Positions 43,676 through 63,329 of a stretch of DNA of 64,000 bases are shown in pieces. Both the position numbers and the translations under genes were made by a program. The stretch is from an uncultured Ruminococcus sp. (GTDB taxonomy: Bacteria; Bacillota; Clostridia; Oscillospirales; CAG-382). The DNA lies in contig CAZNCN010000007.1 in NCBI GenBank assembly GCA_964571635.1, positions 1,096 to 65,095 of the forward strand, read 5' to 3'. Numbering within the stretch: position 1 is the first letter of the stretch; each line of letters begins with the position of its first letter. The notes below the pieces were generated by a model. The model did no database searches and was not told the origin of the DNA. It saw nothing but the letters and a program-made list of their open reading frames with translations.

Positions 43676-44692
43676 ATGGCTCAAAACAGCAAAAACGGCG
43701 GTTATAGGGCAAAGGGCTATAAGCAGATGTACGTCGCAACGGCTATATGCATGATAGTTGTTATCATCATAATAGTTGCTATGGCGGTGCTGCATTCCAA
43801 CCTTGATCCCAACGACACCTCTGTTGACCCCGACCTGTCGCGTGGCGAGAACATTCTGCCGCCCGAAGACAGCGACGTCAGCATATACCAGGTTTCAGAA
43901 GCACCACAGAACCCCGATGCTGTCAATTATATCGAGCACTCTGTGCCTAACACCGAGATCTACAGCGGAATGCTGACGCTTGTCACCGCAAGCGGCAAAG
44001 AGCCTAACAGGACTTTGCTTGGTCTGACCGATATTTATTCCAACATGAATAAAAGCTATGGACTTACCACCACCTCGCTCGAGCTTAACGCCGAGGCGAT
44101 CAAGGGACTAAATCAGTTTATATCTGCTTTTGAATCAGAGGTGGGCTACGGCAAGGACAGACTGCTGATACAGGACGCTTATTGCAGCTTTGACACGCTT
44201 TCTTCAAAAGAAAAGCTCACCAGTTATCCCGATCTTGCCAGCGGATATTCTGTCAGATTCAGCATAACCAATCCGGGCGACTATAAGCTCGGCGAGGGCA
44301 AATATCTCTGGCTCGAGGACAATGCATATCGCTATGGATTTATCTTGCGGTATCCTGTCGGTAAAGAGGCAGAAACCAAGATCGCGGCGAACAATATGTG
44401 CTATCGCTATGTTGGTGTTGCACACTCTGTCTATATTAAAAACAACGCCATCAGCCTTGATGAGTATATCACCGAGGTGCAGGCTCACGATTATAAGAAC
44501 CCGATCCGCGTGACCTATGGCGATACGACTTATAAGATCTATTACCAGGCGGCTGATACAAACCTCGCGTCGACGCTCGTTTATGTTCCGACCGACTATC
44601 CCTATGAGATCTCGGGCGACAACATGGGCGGCTTTATAGTCACTGTTGCAGAGACTGCCGAGAGCGAAGTGTCTGACACCTCGGGCGATTGA
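43676..44692 (+). CDS. membrane-anchored VanY/M15B-like D,D-carboxypeptidase-fold protein with degenerate metal and catalytic motifs
   Basis: 338-aa ORF with a GGGAGG RBS and an N-terminal TM helix. 'LWLEDNAYRYGFILRYP' is the VanY hallmark block. The expected SxHxxGxAxD reads 'SGYSVRFSIT', and the expected E-P-W-H reads 'NNMC' before 'YRYVG'. Confidence 0.7.
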   Translation: MAQNSKNGGYRAKGYKQMYVATAICMIVVIIIIVAMAVLHSNLDPNDTSVDPDLSRGENILPPEDSDVSIYQVSEAPQNPDAVNYIEHSVPNTEIYSGMLTLVTASGKEPNRTLLGLTDIYSNMNKSYGLTTTSLELNAEAIKGLNQFISAFESEVGYGKDRLLIQDAYCSFDTLSSKEKLTSYPDLASGYSVRFSITNPGDYKLGEGKYLWLEDNAYRYGFILRYPVGKEAETKIAANNMCYRYVGVAHSVYIKNNAISLDEYITEVQAHDYKNPIRVTYGDTTYKIYYQAADTNLASTLVYVPTDYPYEISGDNMGGFIVTVAETAESEVSDTSGD

Positions 44693-44703
44693 AAGCAAGA
44701 ACT

Positions 44704-44729
44704 GCGTCGACATACCGTCGACGCTTTTT
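44704..44729 (+). terminator. rho-independent terminator
   Basis: GCGTCGAC-ATACC-GTCGACGC followed by TTTTT. Confidence 0.8.
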
Positions 44730-45149
44730 GTACACAAAATAACCCAAAACAGCAAAACGAACAAATGTTTTGTCTGAATGCTCAAAACGTAAAAAAATCG
44801 CCCCCGAATTTGTGCTTTTTGACGATAGGTTTTTGTCAAATAATGGCACCCAAACCCCCGCAAAAGTCGTTTGCACAAAAAGTGACGCAAAAGTGTAAAT
44901 TATTATTTTCGGTATACTGATTGTGCAAGTTTTGGTAAACACGGATTTTGCTGCCGATTTTAAAGAATATAGCCAAAATCACGCAGCACGGCAGGGGAGT
45001 GGTAAACTTGCAATTCTTGCACATCGGTGAACGATAATTATATGTAAAAAAAGAGGGCTTATTGACATAATGTTTTTAGCTATTTGCATATTTTATCGCT
45101 CTTCTTTTGATATAAAATGCCCAAATCAAAAAGTCTATTTTGCTCGCTA

Positions 45150-45178
45150 TTGACAAAATTGACGAATGGTGCTAAACT
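45150..45178 (+). promoter_or_regulatory. sigma-A-type promoter of the seven-gene ABC-like locus
   Basis: TTGACA (45150-45155), a 17-nt spacer, then TAAACT (45173-45178) preceded by TGC (extended -10). It lies about 85 nt upstream of the first ATG. Confidence 0.6.
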
Positions 45179-45264
45179 TCAGCGTGTAGATATGTAAAAA
45201 GCTATAGCCATGCTCAAATGCTGTTGCTTTTTATCGCACCATTCCATTTCAGGAGGATCAACGG

Positions 45265-48200
45265 ATGAACCAGATCAAGCACAATTTAGCGCGTGTTCTG
45301 TGCGCATTTATCGTGTGTGCCATGCTTTTTGGCGGCTTTGGCGGCACGATAGGTGTATTGCAGGCCGACGCATTAGTTGAATCGGTAGGCGGATCCGATT
45401 CACTTGTTCGTACATCGCTCAAAGAGATCAAGTCTATACTTACCTCGACGATGTACAGCGACTATGATGAACTTTACGCACAGGTCAAAGATGCGGTCAG
45501 TTCCATCGGTCTCGACTTAAAGTCGTATGACAAAGAGCTTACGGGCGCAACAGTTGCGTTCGACACTCTCGATGGCGAAGAATGCATTTTGGTAGGTGAC
45601 GACGGCAACCTGACTTTTAAGATCAATGTTACCGACGAAGCTCGCTATTGCCTGCGTATCGAGTATTATACCGGTGATATCACCGTTTGCGATGCCGATG
45701 GCAATGTCGTTTCGACAGGCAAGTCAACCTCGGCAGAGCGCATGATACTTATTGACGATAAGGTGCCGTTCAAAGAGGCACGCTCGATCGAGTTTTCTAA
45801 AGCTTGGATCGACAAATTGCCTATAATAGGCGACGACGGCAAGGTCGTCAAAGACACTTATGGCAACAAGCAGACATATCCCTCTAACGGCGATCAATAC
45901 CTCGAGTATGTCACCGACCAGAAGAATAACGCCGCTGACTCCTCCCGTCCTTTCCAAAAAGACAACAACGGCAATGAGCTTAAGCCCGATAAACAACTCG
46001 ACGCATCTTGGGTCACCGCCATGGTTCAGGATTCGACAGGTTATTATAACAGCCCCCTGCGCTTCTATCTCTCAGAGGGCGAACACACCATAACATTTGC
46101 TACCGTCAGCGAGCCCATCGCCATCAAGTCGATCTCGTTCGTTCCTATGACGGCGCTGCCCACTTATACAGAATATCTTGAGCAGTACAAGGACGCTGTC
46201 GACTATACAGGCGACAAGCAGTATACACAGGCAGAGTTCCCCACAATGACCTCTGACCGTACGATATATCAGCTCAATGACCGTGCTTCTGCGATAACCG
46301 TTCCGCAGGATCCTGCACTCGTTCTGCTCAACTCTATCGGCGGCGACAAGTGGCAGTACACCGGTCAGTGGATCGAGTGGAAGGTCAACGCACCTGCCGC
46401 AGGCATGTACAGCATAGTTCTTCGTGAAAAGCAGAGCTTCTATGCAGGTATGTATGTCTCGCGCAAGCTGACCATCAACGGCGAGCAGCCTTTTGCTGAA
46501 GCAAGCAACCTGCGCTTCAATTATTCTGAATCGTGGGAGACCAAGGCACTCTCTGCCAGCACTTACGATGCAGATGGCAACATTGATTACAGCACTGCAA
46601 CACCGCTCAAGTTCTATCTGAATGAGGGCGTTAATACCATCAGACTTTATGTCGTTCTCGGCGATATGGCAGAGATGCTCTCTGATGTCGAGGAGTCACT
46701 CAACAATATCAACGAATACTATCGTAAGATATTGATGATAACCGGTCCCGATGCCGACGAATATCGTGACTATGACTTTGACAAGCTGATCCCTGACGTA
46801 CTCAAGGGACTTGTCAAAGAAGCAGCAAACCTCAACCACGCTTCTGCACAGCTTACCGAGGTCACCGGTGCCAAGGGCGACCACGCTGCAACGCTTGAGC
46901 GTATTGCTGTCATTATCGAGAGAATGGGTACTTATCCCACCACTATCGCAGGCAGCATGAGCACTCTTAAGGACCACCTCGGCACTCTCGGTACCTGGCT
47001 TACCGACTCGCAGAACCAGCCTCTGCTTATCGACTATATCTGCTTGCAGTCTCCCTCTGATGAACTGCCGCAGGCAGAAGCCACCTGGTGGCAGAAGCTC
47101 GTCAATGAATTCCAGAAATTCATTGCTTCGTTCTTCTCTGACTATAACTCGCTCGGCTCTGTCTCTGACCAGACACTCACCAGCGAAGAGCTCGAAAAGG
47201 TTTCGATAACCGTCTGGACCAACACCTCGCGTGAACAGGCTCAGATACTCCGTAACCTTGTCGATAACGATTTCACCTCTAAATACAATATTCCCATCGA
47301 GGTTAAGCTCGTTGTCGCAGGCACTCTGCTTCCTGCAACGCTTGCAGGCACAGGCCCTGACGTTTCGATGAACGCAGGTCAGAGCGACCCTGTCAACTAT
47401 GCAATACGTTCGGCAGTCAAATCGCTCAACACCACCACGGGCAACACCAACATTGGCTATAACTTCAACGATCTTTCGGCATGGGCAGATCACCCGATCT
47501 ATGGTCAGTTCATTGATGAGATTGACACTTTTGACGAAGTCACTAACCGCTTCTCTGAGTCGGCAATGACTCCGCTTACGCTTTACGGCGAGGCATACGG
47601 CCTGCCCGAGAATATGTCGTTCTCGATGATGTTCTATCGCAAGGACCTGTTTGTCGAATTCGGCATTGAAGTTCCCAATACGTGGGATGACTTCCTTTCT
47701 ATAATAAATACCATTCAGTCAAAGCGACTCGACATTGGCTTCCCCACCGGCACAAGCGGCTCTATGATACTGATGTATCAGCAGAACGAACAGCTCTATG
47801 ACATGGGCAACTATGAGTATTATCTCGACCTGTTCAGAGAGTTCTATACCGATGAAGAACTGTTCGAGATGGGTTATATATATGAAGATGCAAACGGCAA
47901 CGTCATTCCCAAGACTGACGGCATGACCATCAACCTCGACTCTGACATATCTGTCGGTATGTTCAAGCAGGTCTGCAACTACTTCACTATGTATGATTTC
48001 CCTGTTTCATACAGCTTTGCAAACAGATTCCGTCAGGGCACTATGCCTTTGGCGATCGCAGACTATACCAACTATAACACGCTCATCGTATTTGCACCCG
48101 AGATTCAGGGTCTGTGGGAGTTCACTCCGCTGCCCGGCATGGTTGCCGCTGACGGCACCGTCGACAACTCGACCATCGGCGCAGTATCTTCTATCATCAT

Positions 48201-48639
48201 GATGAAGAGCGTAACCGATGAGAATGCACTTGCTGCATGGACGTTTATGCAGTGGTGGACCAGCGCAGAGGTACAGAGCTCTTATGGCAACGAGATGATT
48301 GCTCTGCTCGGACCTTCTGCAAAGCAGAACACCGCAAACCTTGAGGCTCTTGCCAACATGAGCTGGACCAAGGATGAATATGATAACCTGCGTGCACAGT
48401 TCAACGCCGTCAAATGTACTCCCGAGTATCCGGGCAGCTATATCATCGGCCGTTATACCAACTTTGCATTCCTCGATGTTTATAACAACGCTGCAGAGCC
48501 TACCGAAGAATTGCTCTCTTACATCGTTGATATAAATAACGAGCTCACACGTAAGCGCTCTGAGTTCGGTCTGCCCACAGCCGACACGATCAAAGAGCTT
48601 GAAAAGATGCGTGATGAAAAAAACAAGACTAAGGATTAG
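45265..48639 (+). CDS. giant extracellular solute-binding protein: two N-terminal beta-sandwich (CBM-like) modules plus a C-terminal ABC sugar-binding domain
   Basis: 1124-aa ORF with an AGGAGG RBS and a signal/anchor helix but no canonical lipobox. Its internal duplication is detailed in the findings. The C-terminal roughly 500 aa looks like a family-1 SBP ('ITVWTN..', 'GTGPDVSM'). Confidence 0.8.
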   Translation: MNQIKHNLARVLCAFIVCAMLFGGFGGTIGVLQADALVESVGGSDSLVRTSLKEIKSILTSTMYSDYDELYAQVKDAVSSIGLDLKSYDKELTGATVAFDTLDGEECILVGDDGNLTFKINVTDEARYCLRIEYYTGDITVCDADGNVVSTGKSTSAERMILIDDKVPFKEARSIEFSKAWIDKLPIIGDDGKVVKDTYGNKQTYPSNGDQYLEYVTDQKNNAADSSRPFQKDNNGNELKPDKQLDASWVTAMVQDSTGYYNSPLRFYLSEGEHTITFATVSEPIAIKSISFVPMTALPTYTEYLEQYKDAVDYTGDKQYTQAEFPTMTSDRTIYQLNDRASAITVPQDPALVLLNSIGGDKWQYTGQWIEWKVNAPAAGMYSIVLREKQSFYAGMYVSRKLTINGEQPFAEASNLRFNYSESWETKALSASTYDADGNIDYSTATPLKFYLNEGVNTIRLYVVLGDMAEMLSDVEESLNNINEYYRKILMITGPDADEYRDYDFDKLIPDVLKGLVKEAANLNHASAQLTEVTGAKGDHAATLERIAVIIERMGTYPTTIAGSMSTLKDHLGTLGTWLTDSQNQPLLIDYICLQSPSDELPQAEATWWQKLVNEFQKFIASFFSDYNSLGSVSDQTLTSEELEKVSITVWTNTSREQAQILRNLVDNDFTSKYNIPIEVKLVVAGTLLPATLAGTGPDVSMNAGQSDPVNYAIRSAVKSLNTTTGNTNIGYNFNDLSAWADHPIYGQFIDEIDTFDEVTNRFSESAMTPLTLYGEAYGLPENMSFSMMFYRKDLFVEFGIEVPNTWDDFLSIINTIQSKRLDIGFPTGTSGSMILMYQQNEQLYDMGNYEYYLDLFREFYTDEELFEMGYIYEDANGNVIPKTDGMTINLDSDISVGMFKQVCNYFTMYDFPVSYSFANRFRQGTMPLAIADYTNYNTLIVFAPEIQGLWEFTPLPGMVAADGTVDNSTIGAVSSIIMMKSVTDENALAAWTFMQWWTSAEVQSSYGNEMIALLGPSAKQNTANLEALANMSWTKDEYDNLRAQFNAVKCTPEYPGSYIIGRYTNFAFLDVYNNAAEPTEELLSYIVDINNELTRKRSEFGLPTADTIKELEKMRDEKNKTKD

Positions 48640-48657
48640 AGCGGAGGGGAAGGATAA

Positions 48658-49593
48658 ATGGCAAAAGAAAAAGCAATCATACGCTCTGATTTGACCAGAG
48701 CCCAATGGACATGGATACAGGTCAAAAAGCATAAGGTAGCATATCTTATGGTTCTGCCGTTCTTTGCACTGTTTTTCCTGTTCACGGTCGTTCCCGTTCT
48801 GTTGTCGGTGGTGCTTAGCTTCACCACCTTCAACCTGCTCGAGTGGCCTACATTCGTCGGACTTCAGAACTATATCCGTCTGCTGCTCGATGACGACATC
48901 TTTATCATAGCGGTCAAGAACACGCTTGTGTTCGCTGCTATCACGGGTCCTTGCTCATACCTGCTTTCTATGATGTTTGCATGGTTTATCAATGAGCTGC
49001 GCCCCAAGATCCGCGCCTTTGTTACATTGCTCTTCTATGCACCGTCCATTTCCGGCTCGGTGTATCTGATCTGGACGATATTCTTCTCGTCCGACCAATA
49101 TGGCTTTGTCAATGCGTGGCTCATCAAATTAAACCTTATCTCAAAGCCTATACTGTGGTTCCAGGATGAGACTTATATCTTCCCTCTGATCATAGCGGTT
49201 GCACTTTGGACCTCGCTTGGTACATCGTTCCTGACGATGATCGCAGGCTTCCAGGTCGTCAACCAGGAGCTGTATGAGGCAGGCGCCGTCGACGGCGTCA
49301 AAAACAGATGGCAGGAGCTGTGGTATATCACGCTGCCCTCGATGAAGCCTCAGCTCATGCTGAGTGCTATACTCTCTATAACCGGTGCATTCGGCTTCGG
49401 CGCGGTCATCACCGCACTGGTCGGATTCCCCAGCCCTAACTATTGCGTTCACACCATAATGCACCATCTCGATGACTATGGCGGATCGCGATTTGAGATG
49501 GGCTATGCGTCGGCAATAGCAACGATACTGTTCTTTATGCAGATAGGCTGCAACATGATAGTAACGAGACTCCTCAGAAAGGTAGGTACTTGA
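48658..49593 (+). CDS. carbohydrate ABC transporter permease (MalF-like), pair 1
   Basis: 311-aa ORF with six TM helices and the EAA loop 'LYEAGAVDGVKNRWQELWYITLP'. Confidence 0.85.
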   Translation: MAKEKAIIRSDLTRAQWTWIQVKKHKVAYLMVLPFFALFFLFTVVPVLLSVVLSFTTFNLLEWPTFVGLQNYIRLLLDDDIFIIAVKNTLVFAAITGPCSYLLSMMFAWFINELRPKIRAFVTLLFYAPSISGSVYLIWTIFFSSDQYGFVNAWLIKLNLISKPILWFQDETYIFPLIIAVALWTSLGTSFLTMIAGFQVVNQELYEAGAVDGVKNRWQELWYITLPSMKPQLMLSAILSITGAFGFGAVITALVGFPSPNYCVHTIMHHLDDYGGSRFEMGYASAIATILFFMQIGCNMIVTRLLRKVGT

Positions 49594-49595
49594 TA

Positions 49596-50519
49596 ATGTC
49601 TACATTAAAACAAAAGCTTACCGTTCTTAAAGAGAAACGCGAAAAAAGGCAGATAGAGAACGGCACGTTTTATAAGCGTTCGCTCAACCGCTCGGTCGGC
49701 GGTGACATCGGTATTTATATACTACTCGCTGTCGTCGGCTGTGTTATGGTTCTGCCCATGGTATATGCAATATGCCAGTCGCTTAAGCCTCTCGACGAGT
49801 TGTTCTTCTTCCCGCCGAGGTTCATGCCTGTCAACCCCACGCTCAAGAACTATTCTGACCTGTTCAGATTAATGGGCGACTCGTGGGTCCCGTTCTCGAG
49901 ATACATATTCAACACCGTGTTTATCTCGGTCGTCGGTACTGCAGGCAACGTTTTGCTGTCATCCTATGCAGCATACGCTATCGCAAAGATCCCGTTCCCC
50001 GGACGCAACTTCCTGTTCCAGACGGTTGTTTACTCGTTGATGTTCAACTCGACCGTCACAGGTATCACCAACTTCCTCATCATGACCTGGTTTGGCTGGG
50101 TCGACACCTATTTCGCAGTCATCGTGCCCGCCTTCTGTACGACCTTTGGTCTGTATATGATGAAGCAGTTCATGGAGACCAGCGTCAACGACTCGGTGCT
50201 TGAATCGGCACGAATCGAGGGTGCAAGCGAGAATAAGATATTCTGGAAGATAGCAATGCCTATGGTCAAGCCCGCTTGGATCACGCTGATCATATTCGCA
50301 TTCAAGGATCTGTGGAACTCCGGCTCGAATATATTCATTTATTCAGAGCAGCTCAAAACATTCAACTACGCAATAAGCCAGCTGGTCACCTCGGGCGTTG
50401 CCCGTTCGGGTGTCAGTGCTGCGTCTACAGTCGTTATGATGATTGTGCCTGTAACGGTCTTCGTCGTAACACAGAGCAACATCATACAGACGATGTCTAC
50501 ATCGGGTATGAAGGACTAA
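49596..50519 (+). CDS. carbohydrate ABC transporter permease (MalG-like), pair 1
   Basis: EAA loop 'LESARIEGASENKIFWKIAMP'. I prefer the ATG at 49596, which has AAAGGTAGG about 10 nt upstream, over the TTG at 49590. Confidence 0.85.
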   Translation: MSTLKQKLTVLKEKREKRQIENGTFYKRSLNRSVGGDIGIYILLAVVGCVMVLPMVYAICQSLKPLDELFFFPPRFMPVNPTLKNYSDLFRLMGDSWVPFSRYIFNTVFISVVGTAGNVLLSSYAAYAIAKIPFPGRNFLFQTVVYSLMFNSTVTGITNFLIMTWFGWVDTYFAVIVPAFCTTFGLYMMKQFMETSVNDSVLESARIEGASENKIFWKIAMPMVKPAWITLIIFAFKDLWNSGSNIFIYSEQLKTFNYAISQLVTSGVARSGVSAASTVVMMIVPVTVFVVTQSNIIQTMSTSGMKD

Positions 50520-50537
50520 TCCGGGAGGACTTTGAAC

Positions 50538-52727
50538 ATGAAAACCAAAATAATTCGCACAGTCCTCGTATCTGTCCTGCTCGTAATGCTGGTCGGCTCG
50601 ATCGCTGCAAGTGCGCTCGTGCCTTATCAGACTTACACCTATGACGTTTACGGCGACGTGCAGATGAGCCCGCACGCTTATGTGCCGCTCAAAATAATCA
50701 ACTCGAACTCGATTAAGCAGTCATTCCTTAACGGCTCGAGCGAAAACACTCAGTCAAAATATCAGTATACCGATATCACACCGCTCAATAACCCCAAGGA
50801 TATCTTCGTCGACGACTTGAATCGACTTTATATTGCCGATACCGACAACAGCCGTATAGTCGTCCTTGATGAGAATTATAACTTCTGCTTCTACATCACA
50901 ACCTTCATAAATGACCAGGGCGTTCCCGATTCGCTTTCGTCGCCCGAGGGTGTTTATGTCACTGAGAGTGAGATATATGTTGCAGATACCCAAAAGTCGC
51001 GTATAGTCATCTTTGACAAGCTCGGCAACTTTGTTGACATCGTTCCCGAGCCCAGCAGCGACGTTATCCCCGACGGCAGCATTTATAAGCCCGTCGCACT
51101 CGCAGTTGACAGATCCGGCAGAATTTATGTCGTTTCTTCGACCACTCACTATGGCGTCATTTCGCTTAACCGTGACGGCTCATTCAACTCGTTCATAGGC
51201 CCGCAGGCTGTTAGCGGCACTGTTTGGGACAGACTTCTCAGAATGTTCCAGACCAAAGAGCAGATCGCAGCAAGCTTAAAGCTCGTTCCTACCGAATATA
51301 ACAACGTCACTATCGACTCTGACGGCTTCTTGTATATCACTACCTCGACTATCGCGGACAGCGATGTCATCAGTGCTATCAACAGCAGATCAAAGAGCGG
51401 CAAATATGCGCCTGTTAAAAAGCTCAACCCCACCGGCAGTGACGTCATGGTTCGTAACGGCTTTTGGCCGCCCTCCGGCGAGATCAACTTCAGCACCATG
51501 TCCAACGCAGACATCTCGGGCCCCTCAAAGCTCGTTGACGTAGCACTCGGACCTGATAACACCTGGAGCGTCATTGACCAGAAGCGCAGCAAAGTTTATA
51601 CCTATGACGAAAACGGCAACCTGCTTTATGCATTCGGCGACTTCGGCGATCAGATGGGCAACATCCAGTCGCTTACCGCTATCGCATATCAGGGCACCAA
51701 TATTCTGCTGCTCGACAAGACCACTCAGAGCATAACCGTTTATAAGCGTACCGACTATGGCGATCTGATCGCTTCTGCAATCAGAAAGAACGCCGATAAG
51801 CAGTATGACGAAGCAGTTGATTATTATATCAGCATACTTCAGCACAACAACAACTATGATACCGCATATGTCGGCATAGGCCAGTCGCTCTATCGTGACG
51901 GCGAATATTATGAGGCAATGCAGTATTTCAAGGCTGCTTATGCGACTGAAGATTATTCAGAGGCATATCAGCTCTATCGTAAGGATTGGATCGAAGAGAA
52001 CCTTTGGGTTCTGCCTGTCGTCATCATCGGTGCCTTGTTCCTGATATCCAAGTTCTTTGGCTGGGCTAACAAGGTCAACAAGCGTGGACAGAAGTTCAAG
52101 GATAAGCGCAAGTTCTATGAGGAGGTCCTCTATGGCTTCCACATCATGCTGCATCCTTTCGACGGCTTCTGGGACCTCAAGCACGAGAAGCGCGGTTCTG
52201 TCAGAGGCGCAACCTTCTGGCTGGCACTCACTATTATCGTGTTCGTTTATCAGTCGGTCGGTCAGGGCTATCTGTTCAACCCCTACAACAACACGACCTC
52301 GTTCCTGTTCACCATAATTTCGGTGGCATTGCCGCTGTTCTTGTGGGTAACCGCAAACTGGTGCCTTACCACGCTGTTTGACGGCGAAGGCAGCTTTAAG
52401 GACGTTTATATAGCATCGTGCTATTCGCTCGTACCGCTGGTATTGCTTATACTGCCTACGACGATCATCTCGAACTTCGTCATCGCTGACGAAATGTCAC
52501 TGCTCACCATGGTCGACACGCTCGCATTCTGGTGGATGGCGATACTGATTGTCTTTGGCATGATGGTCACGCACGACTATGGCATCTTCAAGAACCTCTT
52601 GACGGTGCTCGGCACTATCGTCGGTGCTGCGTTCATCATATTCATCGTCGTATTGTTCGGTTCGCTGCTTAGGAAGGTCTACACGTTCTTCTATAACATC
52701 TATATCGAACTTAAACTGCGAGTCTGA
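50538..52727 (+). CDS. NHL-repeat beta-propeller / TPR / Yip1-domain polytopic membrane protein
   Basis: The ATG at 50538 lies 9 nt after GGAGG, and a signal peptide follows. It has NHL-like blades ('LYIADTDNSRIVVLD', 'IYVADTQKSRIVIFD', 'IYVVSST..') and a TPR-like segment ('YDEAVDYYISILQHNNNYDTAYVGIGQSLYRDGEYYEAMQYF'). One TM helix is followed by a basic loop and five more TM helices of Yip1 type. Confidence 0.75.
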   Translation: MKTKIIRTVLVSVLLVMLVGSIAASALVPYQTYTYDVYGDVQMSPHAYVPLKIINSNSIKQSFLNGSSENTQSKYQYTDITPLNNPKDIFVDDLNRLYIADTDNSRIVVLDENYNFCFYITTFINDQGVPDSLSSPEGVYVTESEIYVADTQKSRIVIFDKLGNFVDIVPEPSSDVIPDGSIYKPVALAVDRSGRIYVVSSTTHYGVISLNRDGSFNSFIGPQAVSGTVWDRLLRMFQTKEQIAASLKLVPTEYNNVTIDSDGFLYITTSTIADSDVISAINSRSKSGKYAPVKKLNPTGSDVMVRNGFWPPSGEINFSTMSNADISGPSKLVDVALGPDNTWSVIDQKRSKVYTYDENGNLLYAFGDFGDQMGNIQSLTAIAYQGTNILLLDKTTQSITVYKRTDYGDLIASAIRKNADKQYDEAVDYYISILQHNNNYDTAYVGIGQSLYRDGEYYEAMQYFKAAYATEDYSEAYQLYRKDWIEENLWVLPVVIIGALFLISKFFGWANKVNKRGQKFKDKRKFYEEVLYGFHIMLHPFDGFWDLKHEKRGSVRGATFWLALTIIVFVYQSVGQGYLFNPYNNTTSFLFTIISVALPLFLWVTANWCLTTLFDGEGSFKDVYIASCYSLVPLVLLILPTTIISNFVIADEMSLLTMVDTLAFWWMAILIVFGMMVTHDYGIFKNLLTVLGTIVGAAFIIFIVVLFGSLLRKVYTFFYNIYIELKLRV

Positions 52728-52748
52728 CAGAAGGGAGTGTAATAACTT

Positions 52749-55688
52749 ATGAAAAAACTGTTTATCGCGTTGCTTGCACTTCTTTTGTGCCTCTCGATGA
52801 TACTTCCCATTTTAAATATCCAGGCATCCGCTGCCGAAGATGAAGAGGATACCAACGTTTGGGACACATTGCTGCCTGCATATATGTCCACCTCTTACAA
52901 ATCGATAGAGGATCGCATCCTCGGCAATGATGTCATTGCCGGGATGCAGCTCATGCTCGTCAAGGATGGCTATGCGCTTTATTGCGATCCTATGACAGGC
53001 GAGGTCGTCAACCTCGTCCTCGAGGACCCCATTAAAGACGAAAACGGCAATTATGTTCTTGATGAGAACGGCAACTATACCTATGAGCTTATCGAGGGTT
53101 CGACTGTTTATAAATATAAGGGCTATTGGTCCACCAACCCTTATAACATCGGCTCGAGCCAGTCGGCAGCAGGTCTTAAGACCTCTGACTCGATCAAGCA
53201 AAAGCTTTATTCTCAGGCTATAATCGAATACACCGAGAATGACACCGATATGTCGTTCAACACCTTTGTCGACTCGGCACTCAACGACCAGATCACGGTC
53301 AAGAACATCCGCAGCGGCATCAGAGTTGAATACACCATCGGTAGAGAAGAGGTTAAATACCTCGTTCCTCGCCTTATCCGCAAAGAGAAGCTCGAGGCTC
53401 TTGAAGAGCAGATCAAAGAGCGCTCTGATATATCCAAGGACGCGAGAAGCTTTAAATCCTTCTATATTCTTAAAGACCCCAACCAAGAGGGCATATCTAT
53501 TAAGACTATCGAAGAGATGAAGGTCAAGTATCCTATCTGCGAGAGATTCCCGATATATGTCTGCGAGCCCAAGATCACTGCACAGGAGCTGCTGCGTGTC
53601 GAGAAGCTCGTTAAGAAATATACCGACTATACCTTCGAGCAGATGGATGTCGACCACTCTGAGACCGAATACACCGCAACCGACAAGACCCCCGCACTCT
53701 TTAAGATGGCTATCGAATATACCATCGACCAGTATGGCGTTCAGGTCAGAGTCAATGCGGGCAACATTCGTTTTGACTCTTCCAACTATAAGCTGTCGAA
53801 TGTGACCCTGCTGCCGTATGCCGGTGCAGGCAACACCAACAACAGCGGCTATATCTTCTCACCCGACGGCTCGGGCACGATAATCACCTTTGACAAGATA
53901 CTCGGCACTGCATTCAAAACGCAGAACCAGATGTATGGCCCCGACTATGCGTTCCACACCATCACAGGCGCAAACAAGCAGACGTTCAGACTGCCTTGCT
54001 TCGGCGTTGTTGAGATAGTTGAAGACGCTATAAAAAAGAAGGACTATGTCCAGTTGGTCGACGAAGAGGGCAACCTTTTGTTTGATGAAGACGGCAACCC
54101 TGTTATGTCAAGCGAAATGCAGACCTTCTTTGAAGACCTTAAGATAGGCTATCTCGCCGTTATTACCGAGGGCGATTCGCTCGCCAGCATCACTATTGAG
54201 AACGGCGGCTCGGTGCATATGTTTGCGTCGGCATACACTTCATTCAACCCTCGTCCCAAGGATACTTATGAGCTCGACGGCGGTCTGTCGGCAGGCTCAA
54301 ATGCAATGTGGACTGTTGAATCAAAGAGAAAATATACCAAAGACTTTAAGATCAGATACTTCATCCTCACCGACGACATCTCGTACTCGGGCATGGCAAA
54401 CACCTATCGCGACTATCTCGTTCGCGAGGGCGTCCTGACCGAAATGGAAGAGGATAAGATCGCAGAGGACATTCCTCTTTATATCGAGACTCTGGGTGCA
54501 CTCGAGGTCACAAAGAAGTTCCTTGGCGTGCCTATCCAGACAGTCATCGACCTCACATCGTTTGAAGACACCAAAGCAATGCTGCAAAAGCTTAAGGACG
54601 AAGCAGGCATCACCAACATCAAGGTTAAGATGGATGGTTGGTGCAACGGCGGTCTGCCCTGGGCTTCTGTTCCCAACGGCGTCAAGATCGAGAAGGCTCT
54701 CGGCGGCGAAAAGGGCTTTAAAGAATTGCTTGAATGGTGCAATGAGAACGGCATGCAGCTGTTCCCCGAATTTGAGTTTATCAAAGCATCTTCCGACTAT
54801 CTCTTTGACGGCTTCAATCCCGACAAAGACCTCGCAAAGACCATCGACGACCGAAACGCAACGATACAGCGCTATTATGCATCCACACAGGCATACGAGC
54901 GCACCGGTCACGGTCTGATCTCGGCAAGAGTTTTGGAACGCTTCTATACCAACACCTGGCGTGACTATCAGAAGCTCGGCGTCGGTGCGATATCCGTTTC
55001 GTCGCTCGGCGAGATACTCGGCTCTGACTTTAACGAGGATGATCCGCTCAACCGCGAGGACAGCAAGAACCTCATCACCAAACTGCTTGCCAAGATCGAG
55101 CAGGATAATGGCAAGGTCATGATCTCGGGTGGCAACTATTATGCCATCAGGTATGCATCTGATATAATCAACGTGCCGCTTGACGACTCGAGACTGTCAT
55201 ATTCGGCAGCTTCGGTTCCTTTCATGGGTTCTGTGCTGCACGGCTCTGTTGAGTTTGCGGGCGAGGCTATCAACCTTGCTGGCGACTATCAGTACACCTT
55301 GCTCAAGACTATTGAGAACGGCGCTTCGCCTTATTTCGTGATCGCCATCAACAACACCAGCGAGCTCAAAAATTATAACGATACCGAGCTCGGTGATTAT
55401 TATTCAGTCAGATACAGCATCTGGGTCGCAGACATGGTTAAGACCTATAACGAGCTTAACAATGCACTCAAGGATGTTCGTACTGCAAAGATCGTGGGTC
55501 ACGAGTTTGTTGACAGCGACAGACAGGTTTGCGTAGTTACCTATTCAAACGGCGTCAAGTTCGTCATCAACTATACTCTTGAAGCACAGACTGTCACCGT
55601 TGGTGACAAGACGATAACCGTTGCTGCCGAGAACTTTGTCAAGCTCGACGCCAACGGCAATGTCGTAGAACTTGGAGAGGGGGAATAA
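52749..55688 (+). CDS. large secreted protein of unknown function (from memory resembles what databases label DUF5696; unverified)
   Basis: 979-aa ORF with an AAGGGAG RBS and a signal peptide 'MKKLFIALLALLLCLSMILPILNIQASA'. I recognised no catalytic motif. The segment 'VKMDGWCNGGLPW...LLEWCNENGMQLFPEFEF' is reminiscent of glycoside-hydrolase TIM barrels. Confidence 0.6.
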   Translation: MKKLFIALLALLLCLSMILPILNIQASAAEDEEDTNVWDTLLPAYMSTSYKSIEDRILGNDVIAGMQLMLVKDGYALYCDPMTGEVVNLVLEDPIKDENGNYVLDENGNYTYELIEGSTVYKYKGYWSTNPYNIGSSQSAAGLKTSDSIKQKLYSQAIIEYTENDTDMSFNTFVDSALNDQITVKNIRSGIRVEYTIGREEVKYLVPRLIRKEKLEALEEQIKERSDISKDARSFKSFYILKDPNQEGISIKTIEEMKVKYPICERFPIYVCEPKITAQELLRVEKLVKKYTDYTFEQMDVDHSETEYTATDKTPALFKMAIEYTIDQYGVQVRVNAGNIRFDSSNYKLSNVTLLPYAGAGNTNNSGYIFSPDGSGTIITFDKILGTAFKTQNQMYGPDYAFHTITGANKQTFRLPCFGVVEIVEDAIKKKDYVQLVDEEGNLLFDEDGNPVMSSEMQTFFEDLKIGYLAVITEGDSLASITIENGGSVHMFASAYTSFNPRPKDTYELDGGLSAGSNAMWTVESKRKYTKDFKIRYFILTDDISYSGMANTYRDYLVREGVLTEMEEDKIAEDIPLYIETLGALEVTKKFLGVPIQTVIDLTSFEDTKAMLQKLKDEAGITNIKVKMDGWCNGGLPWASVPNGVKIEKALGGEKGFKELLEWCNENGMQLFPEFEFIKASSDYLFDGFNPDKDLAKTIDDRNATIQRYYASTQAYERTGHGLISARVLERFYTNTWRDYQKLGVGAISVSSLGEILGSDFNEDDPLNREDSKNLITKLLAKIEQDNGKVMISGGNYYAIRYASDIINVPLDDSRLSYSAASVPFMGSVLHGSVEFAGEAINLAGDYQYTLLKTIENGASPYFVIAINNTSELKNYNDTELGDYYSVRYSIWVADMVKTYNELNNALKDVRTAKIVGHEFVDSDRQVCVVTYSNGVKFVINYTLEAQTVTVGDKTITVAAENFVKLDANGNVVELGEGE

Positions 55689-55692
55689 ATAA

Positions 55693-56685
55693 ATGAATGC
55701 TGTAGCTAATGCCGGCAAGACCGAAGTCGCTGCTCAGAAGCCTAAGCGTGCCAAGAAGACAAGATCCTTGCAGGCACAGAAGGCAAGAGCTGGCTGGCTG
55801 TTCATTATGCCGTTCCTTATTGGTTTCTTCCTTATCTATCTGCCCATGATCGTTGAATCGATAAACTTTTCGTTCAACGAGATCTCGACCCAACCCGGCG
55901 GCGGCTATGTGCTCAAGCCGGTTGGTTGGGACAACTATAGCTATGCATTGTTCACCGATACAGAGTTCGGCGGCCTGCTGCGTGACAGCGTGGTAGAGCT
56001 CGCACTCAACGTTCCTGCAATCGTCATCTTCTCGCTGTTCATGGCAGTTTTGCTTAACCAGAAGATGCGCGGCAGAGCAGTGTTCAGAGCAATCTTCTTC
56101 ATCCCCGTCATCGTTTCGACCGGTATAATCGAGTCGATCGACCTGCAGAATACGCTGGCGAGCCAGATGGAGCAAATAGGCTCGACCGGTGACACGACGG
56201 GCATGAATACCAACTCAGGCACATCAATAGTCGACGTCATGGACGTTGAACGACTGTTCAGAGGAATGAAGGTCGGTTCTGAGCTGGTTCAATATGTCAC
56301 AGGCCTTGTTCAGAGCGTCTATGACATAGTTAACAAGTCAGGCGTTCAGATGCTTGTCTTCCTTGCAGGCCTGCAGTCAATATCGCCTGCGATTTATGAG
56401 TCTTGTCAGATAGACGGCGCTACCTCGTGGGAGATCTTCTGGAAGATCACCTTCCCGATGATCAGCCCGATGATATTGGTCAACGCAATATATACGATAA
56501 TAGACTCGTTTACATCACAGTCGAATGCGATGATGACATATATCAGCAGGGTTTACAGCCAGCCAAAGGGCGATGTCAGATCGACCGCAATGGCGTGGAT
56601 GTACTTCCTGGTGATTATAGTGGTTCTGGCGATAGTCGCCGGCATCATGTCAGCTTATGTCTTCTATCAGAGACGTGATACATGA
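55693..56685 (+). CDS. carbohydrate ABC transporter permease (MalF-like), pair 2
   Basis: 330-aa ORF with the EAA loop 'IYESCQIDGATSWEIFWKITFP'. It starts 4 nt after the preceding stop. Confidence 0.85.
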   Translation: MNAVANAGKTEVAAQKPKRAKKTRSLQAQKARAGWLFIMPFLIGFFLIYLPMIVESINFSFNEISTQPGGGYVLKPVGWDNYSYALFTDTEFGGLLRDSVVELALNVPAIVIFSLFMAVLLNQKMRGRAVFRAIFFIPVIVSTGIIESIDLQNTLASQMEQIGSTGDTTGMNTNSGTSIVDVMDVERLFRGMKVGSELVQYVTGLVQSVYDIVNKSGVQMLVFLAGLQSISPAIYESCQIDGATSWEIFWKITFPMISPMILVNAIYTIIDSFTSQSNAMMTYISRVYSQPKGDVRSTAMAWMYFLVIIVVLAIVAGIMSAYVFYQRRDT

Positions 56686-56703
56686 GAAAGGGGGATGGGA
56701 TAA

Positions 56704-57783
56704 ATGAATAACTCAGGCACTCTTTCTAAAAAAGAAAAGAAGGCATTGCTCGAGCAGCAAAAGCGTGAGGAAGCTCTGCGCCGCATGAAGTCTGATGAAA
56801 AGACGACATTCTGGCAGCGCTTGAAGTATAAGTATCTCACCAAATATTTCTTAGGACAGCTTATTTGGTGGATATTCCGCTTTGTATTGCTCGTCGGCAT
56901 ATCCTATATCGTTTTGTTCCCTTATATTTCAAAGGTCGCGGGCTCGTTTATGAGCGCCGAGGACTTTGTCGATGTCACTGTCAAGCTTATTGCAAAGCAT
57001 CCGACACTCGATACATATAAGGCGATAATCAATGACAACAACTATTGGCAGTCGCTGTTTAACACTACGACACTGTCGCTGCTGTGCGGTATCTCACAGA
57101 TGCTGTGCTGCGCTATAGTCGGCTACGGATTTTCTAAGTTCAACTTTAAGTTCAAGAACATCCTGTTCCTTTGCGTCATCTTCACGATGATAGTTCCGCA
57201 CGAGACCATTCAGCTCTCGCTGTTTATGAAGTTCAGATATTTTGATATCTGGGGCATCTACGGATTTATCGCAAAGAATATATTCCAGTCGAGTGAAGCG
57301 ACCCCCGCTATTGCCAACCTGCTCAACACCTATTGGCCGATGGCAATTCTTTCGCTGGGATGCATAGGCCTCAAAAACGGTCTGTATATCTATATCATGC
57401 GTCAGTATTTCAACGGCGTTCCTGATGAGCTTGAAGAAGCAGCTTATGTTGACGGCGCAGGCGTTTTAAAGACGTTTATCCGCATCATTCTGCCGATGTC
57501 GCTGCCCATGCTTGTCACGATATTCATGTTTGCATTCTCGTGGCAGTGGTCCGACACCTTCTATACGGGTCTGTTCTTCAACAATGTGACAAAGGTTCCG
57601 CTTTTGCCCAACATCGTCAAGATCCCGTCGTCGCTTGATACCGACTATGCAGGTAAGACAGCATACGAAGCAGCTATCCGCAATACCTGCGGCCTGCTCA
57701 TACTGTTCCCGCTCGTTATAGTTTATCTGTTCGCACAGCGCACTCTGATCGAGGGCGTCGAGCGTTCGGGTATCACAGGCTAA
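56704..57783 (+). CDS. carbohydrate ABC transporter permease (MalG-like, N-terminally extended), pair 2
   Basis: 359-aa ORF with the EAA loop 'LEEAAYVDGAGVLKTFIRIILP' and a charged N-terminal extension of about 50 aa. Confidence 0.85.
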   Translation: MNNSGTLSKKEKKALLEQQKREEALRRMKSDEKTTFWQRLKYKYLTKYFLGQLIWWIFRFVLLVGISYIVLFPYISKVAGSFMSAEDFVDVTVKLIAKHPTLDTYKAIINDNNYWQSLFNTTTLSLLCGISQMLCCAIVGYGFSKFNFKFKNILFLCVIFTMIVPHETIQLSLFMKFRYFDIWGIYGFIAKNIFQSSEATPAIANLLNTYWPMAILSLGCIGLKNGLYIYIMRQYFNGVPDELEEAAYVDGAGVLKTFIRIILPMSLPMLVTIFMFAFSWQWSDTFYTGLFFNNVTKVPLLPNIVKIPSSLDTDYAGKTAYEAAIRNTCGLLILFPLVIVYLFAQRTLIEGVERSGITG

Positions 57784-57803
57784 TAGCGAATACAACAATA
57801 ACA

Positions 57804-57836
57804 AAAAGGTCGCATCTGCGTGGTGCGACCTTTTTT
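57804..57836. terminator. bidirectional terminator closing the ABC-like locus and the spoVA operon
   Basis: AAAAGGTCGCA-TCTGCGTGG-TGCGACCTTTT followed by TT. Confidence 0.85.
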
Positions 57837-57840
57837 GCTG

Positions 57841-58194
57841 TCATTTCTTTTTGCTCTTGAATAGCATTGCCCAGATGAGTGCGAATAATAAAGCTGCCGT
57901 TATACCTGCTGCGGCGTTTGAGAGTCCGCCGCTGAAAGCACCGAAAAGTCCTTGCTCATCAACCGCTTTTTGTGCGCCCTTTGCGAGCAATGCACCGAAC
58001 CCTGTCAAAGGTACGCTCGCACCTGCACCTGCAAATTCAGAGAACGGCTCGTATAATCCGATCGCCTGCAGAGCAACGCCCGCAACGACGTATCCGACGA
58101 GTATTCGTGCGCCTGTCAGCCTGGTTTTGTCTATCAGTATCTGTGCGATGACGCATAGCGCACCGCCGCATAAAAACGCATAAAGATATTGCAT
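57841..58194 (-). CDS. spoVAE: stage V sporulation protein AE (SpoVAEb-type)
   Basis: 117-aa membrane ORF with 'FAGAGASVPLTGFG', a SpoVAC/SpoVAEb-family block. Confidence 0.85.
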   Translation of the reverse strand: MQYLYAFLCGGALCVIAQILIDKTRLTGARILVGYVVAGVALQAIGLYEPFSEFAGAGASVPLTGFGALLAKGAQKAVDEQGLFGAFSGGLSNAAAGITAALLFALIWAMLFKSKKK

Positions 58195-60125: not shown

Positions 60126-60252
60126 GCTGTTTTGAATCTGTCCTTTCTGTTTTTATGTTACAGAGGATATTATTCTCAAGGCTTGACGTTATTATTACAA
60201 AGGCCTTCCTGTTTTTTTGGTGCATTGTGACAATATTTGACATTAGTTTTCA

Positions 60253-60281
60253 TTGACATTTTGGTGTGTCTTGTTTATAAT
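60253..60281 (+). promoter_or_regulatory. consensus sigma-A promoter for the alpha-mannosidase gene
   Basis: TTGACA (60253-60258), a 17-nt spacer, then TATAAT (60276-60281). A second TTGACA lies 15 nt upstream. Confidence 0.7.
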
Positions 60282-60317
60282 AATTGTATCAAGTCAAATT
60301 ATAAGCAGGAGGCGTAT

Positions 60318-63300: not shown

Positions 63301-63329
63301 AGATCAAAACATTCAGAATAATTTTTTGA
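60318..63329 (+). CDS. GH38 alpha-mannosidase
   Basis: The ATG at 60318 follows GGAGG (60307-60311). It carries 'GHSHIDCAWMW', the GH38 metal/nucleophile-region motif, at a size of about 1000 aa. The track start at 60237 (TTG) lies upstream of the promoter. Confidence 0.85.
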   Translation: MELQYKKIQKTLSVLKERMVSGSVSIDGFMYKNCGYRRTGEIITTPDDTFVRFVTGMHWADETDLHAWFITHVPEAQRPQGTVRTLVVETDRDGWNVYNPQFICYINGNEMQSFDTNHRSLPLDFDDAFDLSLYAYSGSMGKNLPLCCRIDYVFRDVEKLYYDMLIPFEMLSIADKESNEYAVINRALLLACDRIDLRDVSDETFLASVHAAQSVMDDYYSKVTSQRGTVVCVGHSHIDCAWMWTLAQTKEKICRTTATVLSLMERYPDFYFMESQALLYSYLKQESPKLYEKVKQRIKEGRWEVEGAMWVEADCNLTSGESLVRQIIHGKHFFMQEFGVDSRVLWLPDVFGYSAAMPQICAKAGIDAFVTSKISWNDTNRMPYDVFNWVGIDGTKLFTYFLTAQQGTDRAPSNRYTSYVATTDPDFVKGTMKRFSQKDITEEPLLTFGWGDGGGGPTAKMLETYNRMQRGGMVCPSVRNGKVLDYITELKQHAKELPYLPEWRGELYLEYHRGTYTSVGEIKRNNREGEYALQLAEFVSSLAESNKVCDYKSDELYQLWQTLLTNQFHDILPGSSIPQVYRDSAAQFKELFDGVNLITAGAVGAMLKSIDTKGGLLVFNPHSFAATGAVRYNDKTYFAEDIPPMGYAVITPKRRTPLAVAGNGRMENDYYRIEFAQDYTLSRIYDKQARREVIVGRGNRLVAYEDRSLEYGCWNTEEYYRDKPYEITEVIAAESIRDGERCGYKITKRFMSSTVTQYIWIYDRSRRIDFETEADWNEEDLLLKAEFDVTVDSESAVYDIQFGQVSRPTHYNTSWDKARFEVCGQRFADLADHGYGVALMSDCKYGFDIHSGHMSLSLIKSASYVNEYYDKMHHRFTYSLMPHIGDYREAGVIKEACLLNQPLVALPIGKTDGKMPEKLSFISPSADNIAVETIKKAYDGNGYIVRAYETYGMSSECSFTLMRRATVCECDLLENDITDYGKKSASFASQFAPREIKTFRIIF

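Follow-up and report, generated by a model that had tools for sequence, protein, structure and literature searches.

A conserved seven-gene CUT1 importer cassette with a glycosidase-like surface protein in uncultured Clostridia

The DNA analyzed here is a stretch of 64,000 nt (64 kb; the window) from an uncultured Ruminococcus sp., contig CAZNCN010000007.1. Between positions 45265 and 57783, it carries seven open reading frames (ORFs), all on the + strand, that encode a large secreted binding protein, four ATP-binding cassette (ABC) permeases, a membrane protein with NHL, TPR and Yip1 domains, and a secreted DUF5696 protein. These seven genes are closely spaced and have been conserved together as a single unit. 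This cassette is a variant of the Firmicute CUT1 importer with an associated surface glycosidase-like protein, and its marks are the paired permease dimers, the Yip1/NHL protein, secreted parts that lack anchors and the lack of a local regulator. We consider it fairly likely that the cassette captures, processes and imports a glycan and depends on a shared MsmK-type ATPase to do so. A preliminary description of the window had already suggested a surface machine with these three tasks, while allowing for some quite different function; the suggestion fits the GH129/GH101-like fold, the CBM35-like module and the oligosaccharide-type binding domain found among the encoded proteins. The cassette is widespread, experimentally tractable and biochemically uncharacterized. 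Its genes are the following.

45265-48639, + strand: gene 1, 1124 aa, secreted fusion protein with a CUT1 solute-binding domain at its C-terminal end
48658-49593, + strand: gene 2 (P1), 311 aa, MalF/UgpA-type permease with an EAA loop (Pfam BPD_transp_1, NCBIfam UgpA/MalF-like)
49590-50519, + strand: gene 3 (P2), 309 aa, MalG/UgpE-type permease with an EAA loop (ESARIEG...P)
50532-52727, + strand: gene 4, 731 aa, with a signal peptide, NHL and TPR repeats, one transmembrane (TM) helix, a cytoplasmic motif and a Yip1 multi-pass domain
52749-55688, + strand: gene 5, 979 aa, secreted DUF5696 protein, glycoside-hydrolase-like, of GH129/GH101 type
55693-56685, + strand: gene 6 (P3), 330 aa, divergent MalF/UgpA-type permease with an EAA loop
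56704-57783, + strand: gene 7 (P4), 359 aa, divergent MalG/UgpE-type permease with an EAA loop

To follow the cassette through other genomes, we ran a profile of the gene 5 protein against one genome per species, which returned relatives in 266 genomes, and examined the best 80 loci (L001-L080). An independent metagenome scan with two gene 4 motifs matched more than 600 stretches, from which a further 80 loci were kept. The best 80 of the 266 genome loci all belong to metagenome-assembled Clostridia labeled Oscillospiraceae, 'Ruminococcus' or Eubacteriales, and one of them is 98% identical to the window. In all 80, the order is binding protein-P1-P2-NHL/Yip1-DUF5696-P3-P4, down to 36-40% protein identity, with genes missing only at contig ends. 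The metagenome loci are likewise compatible with the cassette in 79 of 80 cases, so that order and tight spacing are unchanged in 159 of the 160 loci. The neighborhood check proposed in the preliminary description thus gives a clear answer, the seven genes being very strongly co-conserved. The single exception, L114 (positions 1-14183), carries P1-P2-NHL/Yip1 followed by unrelated genes on the opposite strand in place of DUF5696-P3-P4; this may be either a genuine half-cassette or a chimera of the assembly. Strong purifying selection acts on all seven proteins.

In public data, the gene 5 family falls into 5,140 clusters at 50% identity, of which 3,131 have E ≤ 1e-30, and its 150th-best representative (1317 aa) stands in the same gene context. 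Carriers amount to at least 266 species-level genomes, mostly of uncultured Clostridia, from the rumen, human and animal gut, sediment, bioreactors and groundwater. Cluster look-ups for 20 family representatives returned no cultured carrier, only metagenome-assembled genomes. Two near-identical cassette loci, L006 and L007, carry different taxonomic labels, 'Clostridiales bacterium UBA12491' and 'Candidatus Margulisbacteria bacterium GWF2_35_9'; this clash is probably a binning or labeling artifact in one of the records.

A locus of the same layout is listed in the published annotation of Caldicellulosiruptor bescii (Anaerocellum), where the proximal part of the xylan degradation locus reads xloEFG-X-GH129-axoFGE (Athe_0174-0181; Csac_2419-2412) (PMC8579813, PMC12285236). 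Athe_0174 is the binding protein XloE, and Athe_0175 and Athe_0176 are permeases (PMC8579813 supplements). The middle genes are annotated as an 'NHL repeat-containing protein' and a 'putative GH129 glycosyl hydrolase' predicted to be extracellular; Athe_0179 and Athe_0180 are again permeases, Athe_0181 is a second binding protein (AxoE), and xylanase genes come next (PMC8579813). Xylan and Avicel induce all genes of xloEFG-X-GH129-axoFGE (PMC8579813 supplements), and XynR binds an operator of the locus in vitro (PMC12285236). Compared by published annotation only, the order agrees gene for gene with that of the window cassette, save for AxoE, and both loci lack an ATPase, C. bescii relying on a shared MsmK (PMC8579813). 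From these likenesses, we judge the C. bescii cassette to be very probably homologous to that of the window.

The two loci also differ in several respects. The C. bescii cassette ends with AxoE, whereas a second binding protein is found neither in the window cassette nor in the 160 loci; it continues into xylanase and xylosidase genes, whereas gene 7 of the window is followed by a terminator and a convergent spoVA operon; and it has an experimentally bound XynR operator, with a local LacI-family regulator in some genomes (PMC12285236), whereas the window cassette has neither. The 24-nt XynR operator sequence has no match in the metagenome contigs, and our literature search found no paper naming Athe_0177/0178 or Csac_2415/2416. 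The locus had been put forward as an undescribed system, and as a unit it is indeed undescribed and biochemically uncharacterized, but its layout was already present in the C. bescii annotation.

The C. bescii authors describe two separate predicted transporters, one for xylo-oligosaccharides and one for arabinoxylo-oligosaccharides, and leave the middle genes unassigned (PMC8579813). That division, xloEFG from axoFGE with different predicted substrates, would suit an explanation in which two unrelated transporters and two unrelated surface proteins lie side by side by history and are not coupled. We regard such an accident of adjacency as very unlikely, given that order and spacing are invariant in all but one of the 160 loci even at the lowest identities, that start and stop codons overlap or nearly abut, and that, among the sampled loci, L114 is the only one in which gene 4 occurs without gene 5.

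Permease pairs and the secreted binding protein

The Pfam domain BPD_transp_1 is present in genes 2, 3, 6 and 7, and all four products carry the EAA coupling loop that had been claimed for them, that of P1 having one extra residue; the EAA residues are at least 97% conserved. The MalF/MalG-type pair that characterizes CUT1 transporters is therefore found twice, as P1/P2 and as P3/P4. P1 is the best conserved of the seven proteins: among 69 orthologues, 111 of its 311 positions are at least 97% conserved. Between its TM3 and TM4, P3 contains an extracellular insert of ~75 residues that varies among relatives. Identity is only 23% between P1 and P3 and 21% between P2 and P4, and the two pairs are therefore ancient and distinct rather than products of a recent duplication. 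As judged from their sequences, P1/P2 and P3/P4 are complete, anciently diverged permease heterodimers with ATPase-coupling EAA loops. We rejected a function in export, as the combination of BPD_transp_1 with an EAA loop marks the permeases of importers.

The single binding protein, gene 1, is a fusion of several modules.

45553-46143, + strand: first beta-sandwich module, residues 97-293, from the secondary structure of the model; no Pfam match
46219-46656, + strand: second beta-sandwich module, CBM35-like, residues 319-464, from the model, Pfam CBM_35 and a weak match to 2w47
46666-47013, + strand: long helical bundle, residues 468-583, with helices 468-493, 510-534, 538-556 and 558-583 in the model
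47182-48636, + strand: MalE-type two-lobe solute-binding domain, residues 640-1124, from Pfam, PDB and Foldseek matches

Pfam SBP_bac_8 matches residues 685-1009 with 53.8 bits against a cut-off of 27. In the AlphaFold model of gene 1, which has a predicted local distance difference test score (pLDDT) of 77, the binding domain resembles CUT1 oligosaccharide-binding proteins, with best template-modeling scores (TM-scores) of 0.76-0.77 to 5ysb/5yse in Foldseek; the top match, 5ysb, is a beta-1,2-glucooligosaccharide-binding protein. The second sandwich gives a weak PDB match to the CBM35 structure 2w47, and Pfam CBM_35 scores E 0.11 in the window protein and down to E 1.5e-6 in 3 of 34 orthologues. 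Gene 1 is thus a secreted protein with an oligosaccharide-type binding domain in its C-terminal half.

The signal peptide of gene 1 is of the signal peptidase I (SPase-I) type (ASA/ADA). A lipobox occurs in 3 of the 34 orthologues and is lacking in the window protein, so that the anchor typical of Gram-positive CUT1 binding proteins is absent. Gene 5 also has an SPase-I signal peptide, with a lipobox in none of 32 sequences; both proteins have AxA-type signal-peptidase I sites, and neither contains a Pfam wall-binding or anchor domain. To judge by these sequence features, genes 1 and 5 lack a lipid, sortase or wall anchor. An unanchored binding protein would be of little use to a Gram-positive cell, and therefore something must hold gene 1 at the surface.

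Evolutionary distances give a further indication of how these proteins are paired. Partial correlations are 0.71 between gene 1 and P1, 0.41 between P3 and P4, and -0.39 between gene 1 and P3, with a weak positive residual correlation of 0.28 between gene 5 and P4. By this sequence-based measure, gene 1 and P1 appear to be the pair with the tightest coupling of evolutionary rates. The fastest-evolving parts of the cassette are the binding protein and the GH129-like protein of gene 5, and specificity may therefore differ among lineages.

The DUF5696 protein and the GH129/GH101 superfamily

Gene 5 matches Pfam DUF5696 (PF18952) with 506.4 bits (E 1.5e-151; cut-off 25.6), and its AlphaFold model, built with 32 homologues, has a pLDDT of 81 and a predicted TM-score of 0.77. 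Two regions of the protein need separate mention.

52851-53648, + strand: extra N-terminal alpha/beta region of gene 5, residues 35-300, conserved, absent from NagBb and outside the Pfam model
54384-55478, + strand: (beta/alpha)8 barrel of gene 5, residues ~546-910, from the secondary structure of the model

The best Foldseek match of the model is the GH129-like 3,6-anhydro-D-galactosidase DagB (5opq; E 4.4e-28, TM-score 0.67), followed by the GH129 enzyme NagBb (5wzn; E 8e-22, TM-score 0.69) and then by GH101 endo-alpha-N-acetylgalactosaminidases (E ~1e-15), GH31 and GH36. In the predicted core, a (beta/alpha)8 barrel stands between an N-terminal and a C-terminal beta-sandwich, which is the composition of the GH129 fold; DagB consists of a beta-sandwich, a TIM barrel and an Ig-like domain (PMC5698469). 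The core fold is thus common to gene 5, NagBb of Bifidobacterium bifidum and DagB of Zobellia galactanivorans. Gene 5 differs from NagBb in its signal peptide and in its extra N-terminal region of ~270 residues, for which no relative is known, and from both enzymes in being encoded between ABC permease pairs.

Sequence comparison reaches the same family by a longer route. Searches of the PDB with the gene 5 sequence and profile returned nothing significant, NagBb appearing at E 0.48 (phmmer) and 1.4, and identity to these enzymes is ~11%. The DUF5696 model that recognizes gene 5 nevertheless also matches NagBb, an alpha-N-acetylgalactosaminidase: it gives 44 bits to a true NagBb fragment and 60 bits to a rebuilt, 84%-identical NagBb-like protein (cut-off 25.6), and both NagBb-type sequences score higher against DUF5696 than against the GH101 and GH129 models. 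The NagBb-like sequence was rebuilt from a frameshifted metagenome contig, L081, with D435 and E478 placed correctly, and hhalign aligns it with the gene 5 family over 526 columns (probability 84%, E 7.6e-6). DUF5696 is a branch of the GH129/GH101 superfamily, and gene 5 is a distant relative of sugar-cleaving enzymes.

The 979-aa protein had been described as one for which no characterized homologue could be named, and that statement no longer holds: it is a DUF5696 member, the DUF5696 model scores NagBb, and its fold matches GH129/GH101. A published function for the 979-aa or the 731-aa protein in this same gene context had been named as what would undo the proposal of a new system. The literature search returned no paper that names DUF5696 or gives a function to either protein.

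Within gene 5, D687, D760, R769, E770, D771, N796, S814, H831, N842 and E856 are at least 97% conserved among 76 orthologues, and in the model, the conserved polar residues lie on or near the beta-to-alpha loops of the barrel. The topology of the barrel suggests that these loop residues lie on the catalytic face.

Several observations concern the family at large. In distant lineages, DUF5696 proteins carry C-terminal extensions of 500-1,500 residues and reach totals of up to ~2,500 aa (for example, L064 10001-14392 and L079 9992-15577); in two longer homologues (1463 and 1861 aa), the extensions contain no Pfam domain. The gene on L081, a Bifidobacterium-like metagenome contig (positions 300-2400), encodes a product, P0406, that is 84% identical to the GH129 NagBb fragment. 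It is broken by several frameshifts, which at a coverage of 1.7x are probably low-coverage assembly errors, and the protein database holds it as short fragments only, annotated DUF5696 and GH101.

The membrane protein, expression signals and surroundings

Gene 4 combines an extracellular part with a multi-pass membrane domain.

50709-51731, + strand: NHL beta-propeller ectodomain, residues ~60-400, from Pfam, PDB matches and conservation
51759-51971, + strand: extracellular TPR repeats, residues ~410-480, with Pfam scores below the gathering cut-off
52140-52649, + strand: Yip1 membrane domain, residues 537-706, with the invariant cytoplasmic motif HPFDGFWDLKHEKRG ahead of it

Pfam scores are 51.9 bits for Yip1 (cut-off 28.6; residues 537-706) and 48 bits for NHL, with TPR weak, and the PDB sequence matches are to NHL propellers, including the extracellular sensor domain of PknD. 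This bears out the NHL-TPR-Yip1 content given in the preliminary description, which had put the length at 730 aa rather than 731. TM helices are predicted at residues 11-29, 491-509, 590-608, 633-651, 657-675 and 689-707. The cytoplasmic linker is basic and carries the motif HPFDGFWDLKHEKRG, and the positions that are at least 97% conserved (140 of 731) extend across the ectodomain, the cytoplasmic motif and the membrane domain. As genes 1 and 5 have no anchors of their own, we propose that the NHL-TPR-Yip1 protein would serve as a membrane scaffold that keeps the two secreted proteins beside the two permease dimers.

Among bacterial Yip1 proteins, our literature search found a described role only for YknW, which belongs to the YknXYZ ABC exporter of Bacillus as an accessory subunit (PMC4887032). 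Gene 4 and YknW are thus alike as Yip1 proteins associated with an ABC transporter. YknYZ is, however, a MacB-type exporter that works with a membrane-fusion protein in toxin efflux, and YknW, a small protein, lacks any ectodomain of the NHL or TPR kind (PMC4887032). No MacB or membrane-fusion protein is encoded beside the cassette, which sets it apart from systems of the YknWXYZ type.

Signals for expression as a single unit frame the seven genes.

45150-45178, + strand: sigma-70-type promoter, TTGACA, 17-nt spacer and TG-extended TAAACT
45190-45239, + strand: two conserved blocks of the 5' untranslated region (5'-UTR), ATAT.TAAAAAGCTAT and CTTTTTATCGCAC, invariant in the window and in L001, L002 and L003
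45252-45257, + strand: ribosome-binding site (RBS) AGGAGG, 7 nt upstream of the ATG at 45265
57804-57836, no strand assigned: bidirectional intrinsic terminator, AAAAAGGTCGCA-loop-TGCGACCTTTTTT

The intergenic gaps, from gene 1 to gene 7 in order, are 18, -4, 12, 21, 4 and 18 nt, and a GGAGG-like RBS precedes every one of the seven genes. The start of gene 3 is probably the ATG at 49596 and that of gene 4 the ATG at 50538. The promoter agrees with the consensus at 10 of 12 positions, a level of agreement that DNA of this kind reaches by chance (22 matches found versus 19.7 expected from shuffled sequence). In L001-L003, relatives whose proteins are 76-98% identical to those of the cassette, the -35 box, the extended -10 box and the two 5'-UTR blocks are nonetheless invariant while the surrounding bases vary. 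A block farther upstream, TTTTGATATAAA (45105-45116), is likewise invariant across the window and L001-L003 amid varying bases. At the other end, the hairpin folds with a free energy of -22.9 kcal/mol (z -4.3; 0 of 200 shuffles fold as well) and is flanked by an A-run and, on the opposite side, a T-run; it is taken to be bidirectional because a convergent spoVA operon ends at 57841.

These data agree with most of what had been said of the layout. The ORFs, promoter, terminator and conservation all favor reading the seven same-strand genes as one operon, the gaps do not exceed the 21 nt stated for them, the AGGAGG site opens the run and a strong hairpin closes it. The near-consensus promoter is present in sequence and invariant in relatives, but its match to the consensus is not by itself above chance.

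No ORF in the 64-kb window carries a Walker A motif together with an LSGGQ signature, and an ATPase is never part of the cassette in the 160 loci. Nor did we detect a DNA-binding domain in the flanking genes or in small intergenic ORFs; with no Pfam match in the latter, we rejected the idea of a hidden intergenic regulator. The locus and its flanks thus lack both an ABC ATPase and a transcription factor, as first described. All twelve CUT1 systems of C. bescii are without an ATPase of their own, and deletion of msmK abolishes growth on oligo- and polysaccharides (PMC8579813); MsmX of B. subtilis is likewise a shared ATPase (PMC7658222). Since MsmK is shared among Clostridial CUT1 importers, there is nothing out of the ordinary in the missing ATPase. 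The earlier suggestion that an ATPase is borrowed from elsewhere accordingly has known precedents in MsmK and MsmX, but its absence is the norm for Clostridial CUT1 systems rather than a peculiarity of this one. The missing local regulator or catabolic gene is less usual than the missing ATPase: across the loci, the cassette has no constant neighbor that encodes an ATPase, a regulator, a second binding protein or a catabolic enzyme.

Regulation may come from a distance, the 5'-UTR blocks possibly being an operator for a regulator encoded elsewhere. The blocks at 45190-45239 match no Rfam family, and a CcpA cre site is absent from 44000-58000 by two consensus patterns. For the 573-nt gap upstream of the cassette, we also rejected a riboswitch or leader RNA, as Rfam (E up to 1) gave only sub-threshold Thr-leader hits over a terminator.

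The window flanks the cassette with PFOR, a VanY-like gene, spoVAC/D/E, DUF6512 and a GH38 mannosidase. In other loci, the flanking genes vary by lineage and are of a housekeeping nature (PFOR, VanY-like, spoVA, alaS, asnA, hydrogenase), PFOR and the VanY-like gene being upstream in 46 of L001-L080; this upstream neighborhood may reflect synteny alone or a functional tie. In GC content, the locus (0.490) does not differ from the window (0.496), and with synteny also kept, we rejected recent horizontal transfer.

Such surroundings bring to mind a housekeeping role, the salvage of a self-made or always-met glycan such as wall polysaccharide, capsule or cyclic glucan, which would explain both the core-gene neighborhood and the lack of a local regulator in every locus. 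The GC content of the cassette, equal to that of the genome, accords with it, as do the best structural match of gene 1, a beta-1,2-glucooligosaccharide-binding protein, and a 2338-aa protein with GT2 and GH94 domains that is encoded in the window. We nonetheless give this explanation little credence. The conserved 5'-UTR blocks suggest distant regulation, the annotated C. bescii counterpart is induced by xylan, an alpha-glycosidase-like fold is unsuited to beta-1,2-glucan, and the synteny may reflect vertical inheritance within one family.

Several of the neighbors deserve a brief description of their own. The 2338-aa ORF (23336-30352, - strand) contains GT2 (residues 422-644), a GH94 supersandwich and a GH94 catalytic domain (residues 1875-2274), the architecture of cyclic beta-1,2-glucan synthases (Cgs/NdvB type), which is unusual in a Clostridium-like genome; its presence alongside the 5ysb match of gene 1 may be a coincidence. 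The VanY-like protein (43676-44692, + strand, 338 aa) is membrane-anchored and gives a weak partial match to VanY (D-Ala-D-Ala carboxypeptidase); its gene has its own terminator at 44704-44724 and lies ~570 nt from the cassette. The GH38 alpha-mannosidase (60237-63329, + strand, 1030 aa, TTG start) lies 2.4 kb downstream, past the spoVA and DUF6512 genes, and is not a conserved neighbor in other loci. A galactokinase-like GHMP kinase (20385-21671, + strand, 428 aa) is located among housekeeping genes ~24 kb upstream.

Proposed mechanism and biological meaning

If the cassette captures, processes and imports a glycan, as we think fairly likely, the GH129-like gene 5 would act at the cell surface, trimming a polymer or glycoconjugate or releasing oligosaccharides from it. 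The CBM35-like modules would hold the substrate, and the binding domain of gene 1 would pass the oligosaccharide to P1/P2, to which we assign it because of the correlation between gene 1 and P1. P3/P4 would import a second product, or the same one, and a shared MsmK/MsmX-type ATPase encoded elsewhere would power both permease pairs.

Several points weigh against this mechanism. In the hhalign alignment, D435 of NagBb falls on S749 of gene 5 and E478 on R801, in a stretch of low confidence. The Pfam models of GH129 (PF11308) and GH101 (PF12905) give no match to gene 5 even at E 10; its link to GH129 lies at the profile level only (hhalign and the DUF5696 model), and the sequence signature of the family itself is not found. 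With the NagBb pair not evidently kept and no match to either Pfam model, enzymatic activity of gene 5 is therefore unproven, and the modeled protein is a candidate enzyme only. There is a single binding protein for two permease pairs, and across the loci, neither a cytoplasmic catabolic enzyme nor a regulator nor a further glycoside hydrolase recurs next to the cassette, which is unusual for a nutrient-utilization locus. The search for an ATPase covered the 64-kb window and the 160 cassette loci, and the link to C. bescii was drawn by annotation, not sequence. Finally, gene 4 may be a scaffold, missing anchors and co-conservation being the grounds for that role.

With regard to the catalytic residues, the invariant D760, E770 and D771 of gene 5 lie 11-22 residues downstream of S749. 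The catalytic residues of DagB and NagBb themselves differ (PMC5698469), and by analogy, the conserved loop residues of gene 5 may fit an active site built from other catalytic residues.

The same observations would take on another sense if the DUF5696 protein were a non-catalytic or weakly catalytic glycan receptor that docks on P3/P4 in place of a binding protein, with the Yip1 scaffold uniting two importers, an explanation we hold to be unlikely. A delivery protein followed by two permeases does appear twice, as gene 1-P1-P2 and as gene 5-P3-P4, and a second binding protein is missing throughout the 160 loci. The NagBb catalytic residues are not evidently conserved in gene 5, the distances of gene 1 follow P1 and anti-correlate with P3 while gene 5 and P4 share their residual signal, and both P3 and P4 carry extra extracellular inserts. 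To our knowledge, however, no ABC importer has a docking partner of glycoside-hydrolase fold, and the many invariant polar residues on the barrel loop face of gene 5 are as in enzymes. The mirror-tree signal is weak and easily confounded, and the second binding protein annotated after the second permease pair in C. bescii suggests that P3/P4 ancestrally used an ordinary one.

Release at the surface followed by CUT1 uptake has a known counterpart. In Bifidobacterium and Streptococcus, a GH101 endo-alpha-N-acetylgalactosaminidase works with the galacto-N-biose/lacto-N-biose ABC importer, and the structures 2zxq, 3ecq and 2z8d from these systems are among the structure and sequence matches of the cassette proteins. 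These systems work on the same principle: an enzyme of this fold superfamily releases an oligosaccharide at the surface, which a CUT1 binding protein and permease pair then take up. The GH101 enzymes are, however, wall-anchored and encoded outside the transporter operon, and those systems have one permease pair and no Yip1/NHL protein. A Gram-positive polysaccharide utilization locus (gpPUL), as reportedly defined by Sheridan et al. in 2016, brings together genes for a degrading enzyme, for a transporter and for a transcriptional regulator; the cassette provides the transporter and a candidate enzyme, with no regulator in its flanks or in the other loci. The MsmX/MsmK-dependent CUT1 importers of B. 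subtilis, Streptococcus pneumoniae and C. bescii are, like the cassette, encoded in operons without an ATPase; such operons specify a binding protein with two permeases, and a shared 'multitask' ATPase is encoded elsewhere (PMC7658222, PMC5730181, PMC8579813). They differ in having lipoprotein binding proteins of ~420 aa, one permease pair and usually a local regulator with catabolic genes.

The cassette has become less mysterious because the missing ATPase is normal, the 979-aa protein belongs to the GH129/GH101 superfamily and the layout is listed for C. bescii. That organism is genetically tractable and, by annotation, appears to carry the same cassette; if the homology is true, a plant hemicellulose-derived glycan would be the leading guess for the substrate. 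The specificity of gene 5 could add a new glycosidase activity, possibly one for the breakdown of hemicellulose or host glycans in the gut. The Yip1/NHL protein together with two permease dimers offers a testable model of how Gram-positive cells retain unanchored proteins at a transporter. A bolder version, which we consider improbable, is a surface glycan-processing translocon of fixed composition in which the Yip1 scaffold, by means of its NHL and TPR ectodomain, would tether both secreted proteins over the two permease dimers and gene 5 would feed its product directly to P3/P4 without a conventional binding protein. If true, an enzyme would take the place of the solute-binding protein as the partner of an ABC importer, and the system would give a bacterial Yip1 protein its first defined role in nutrient uptake.

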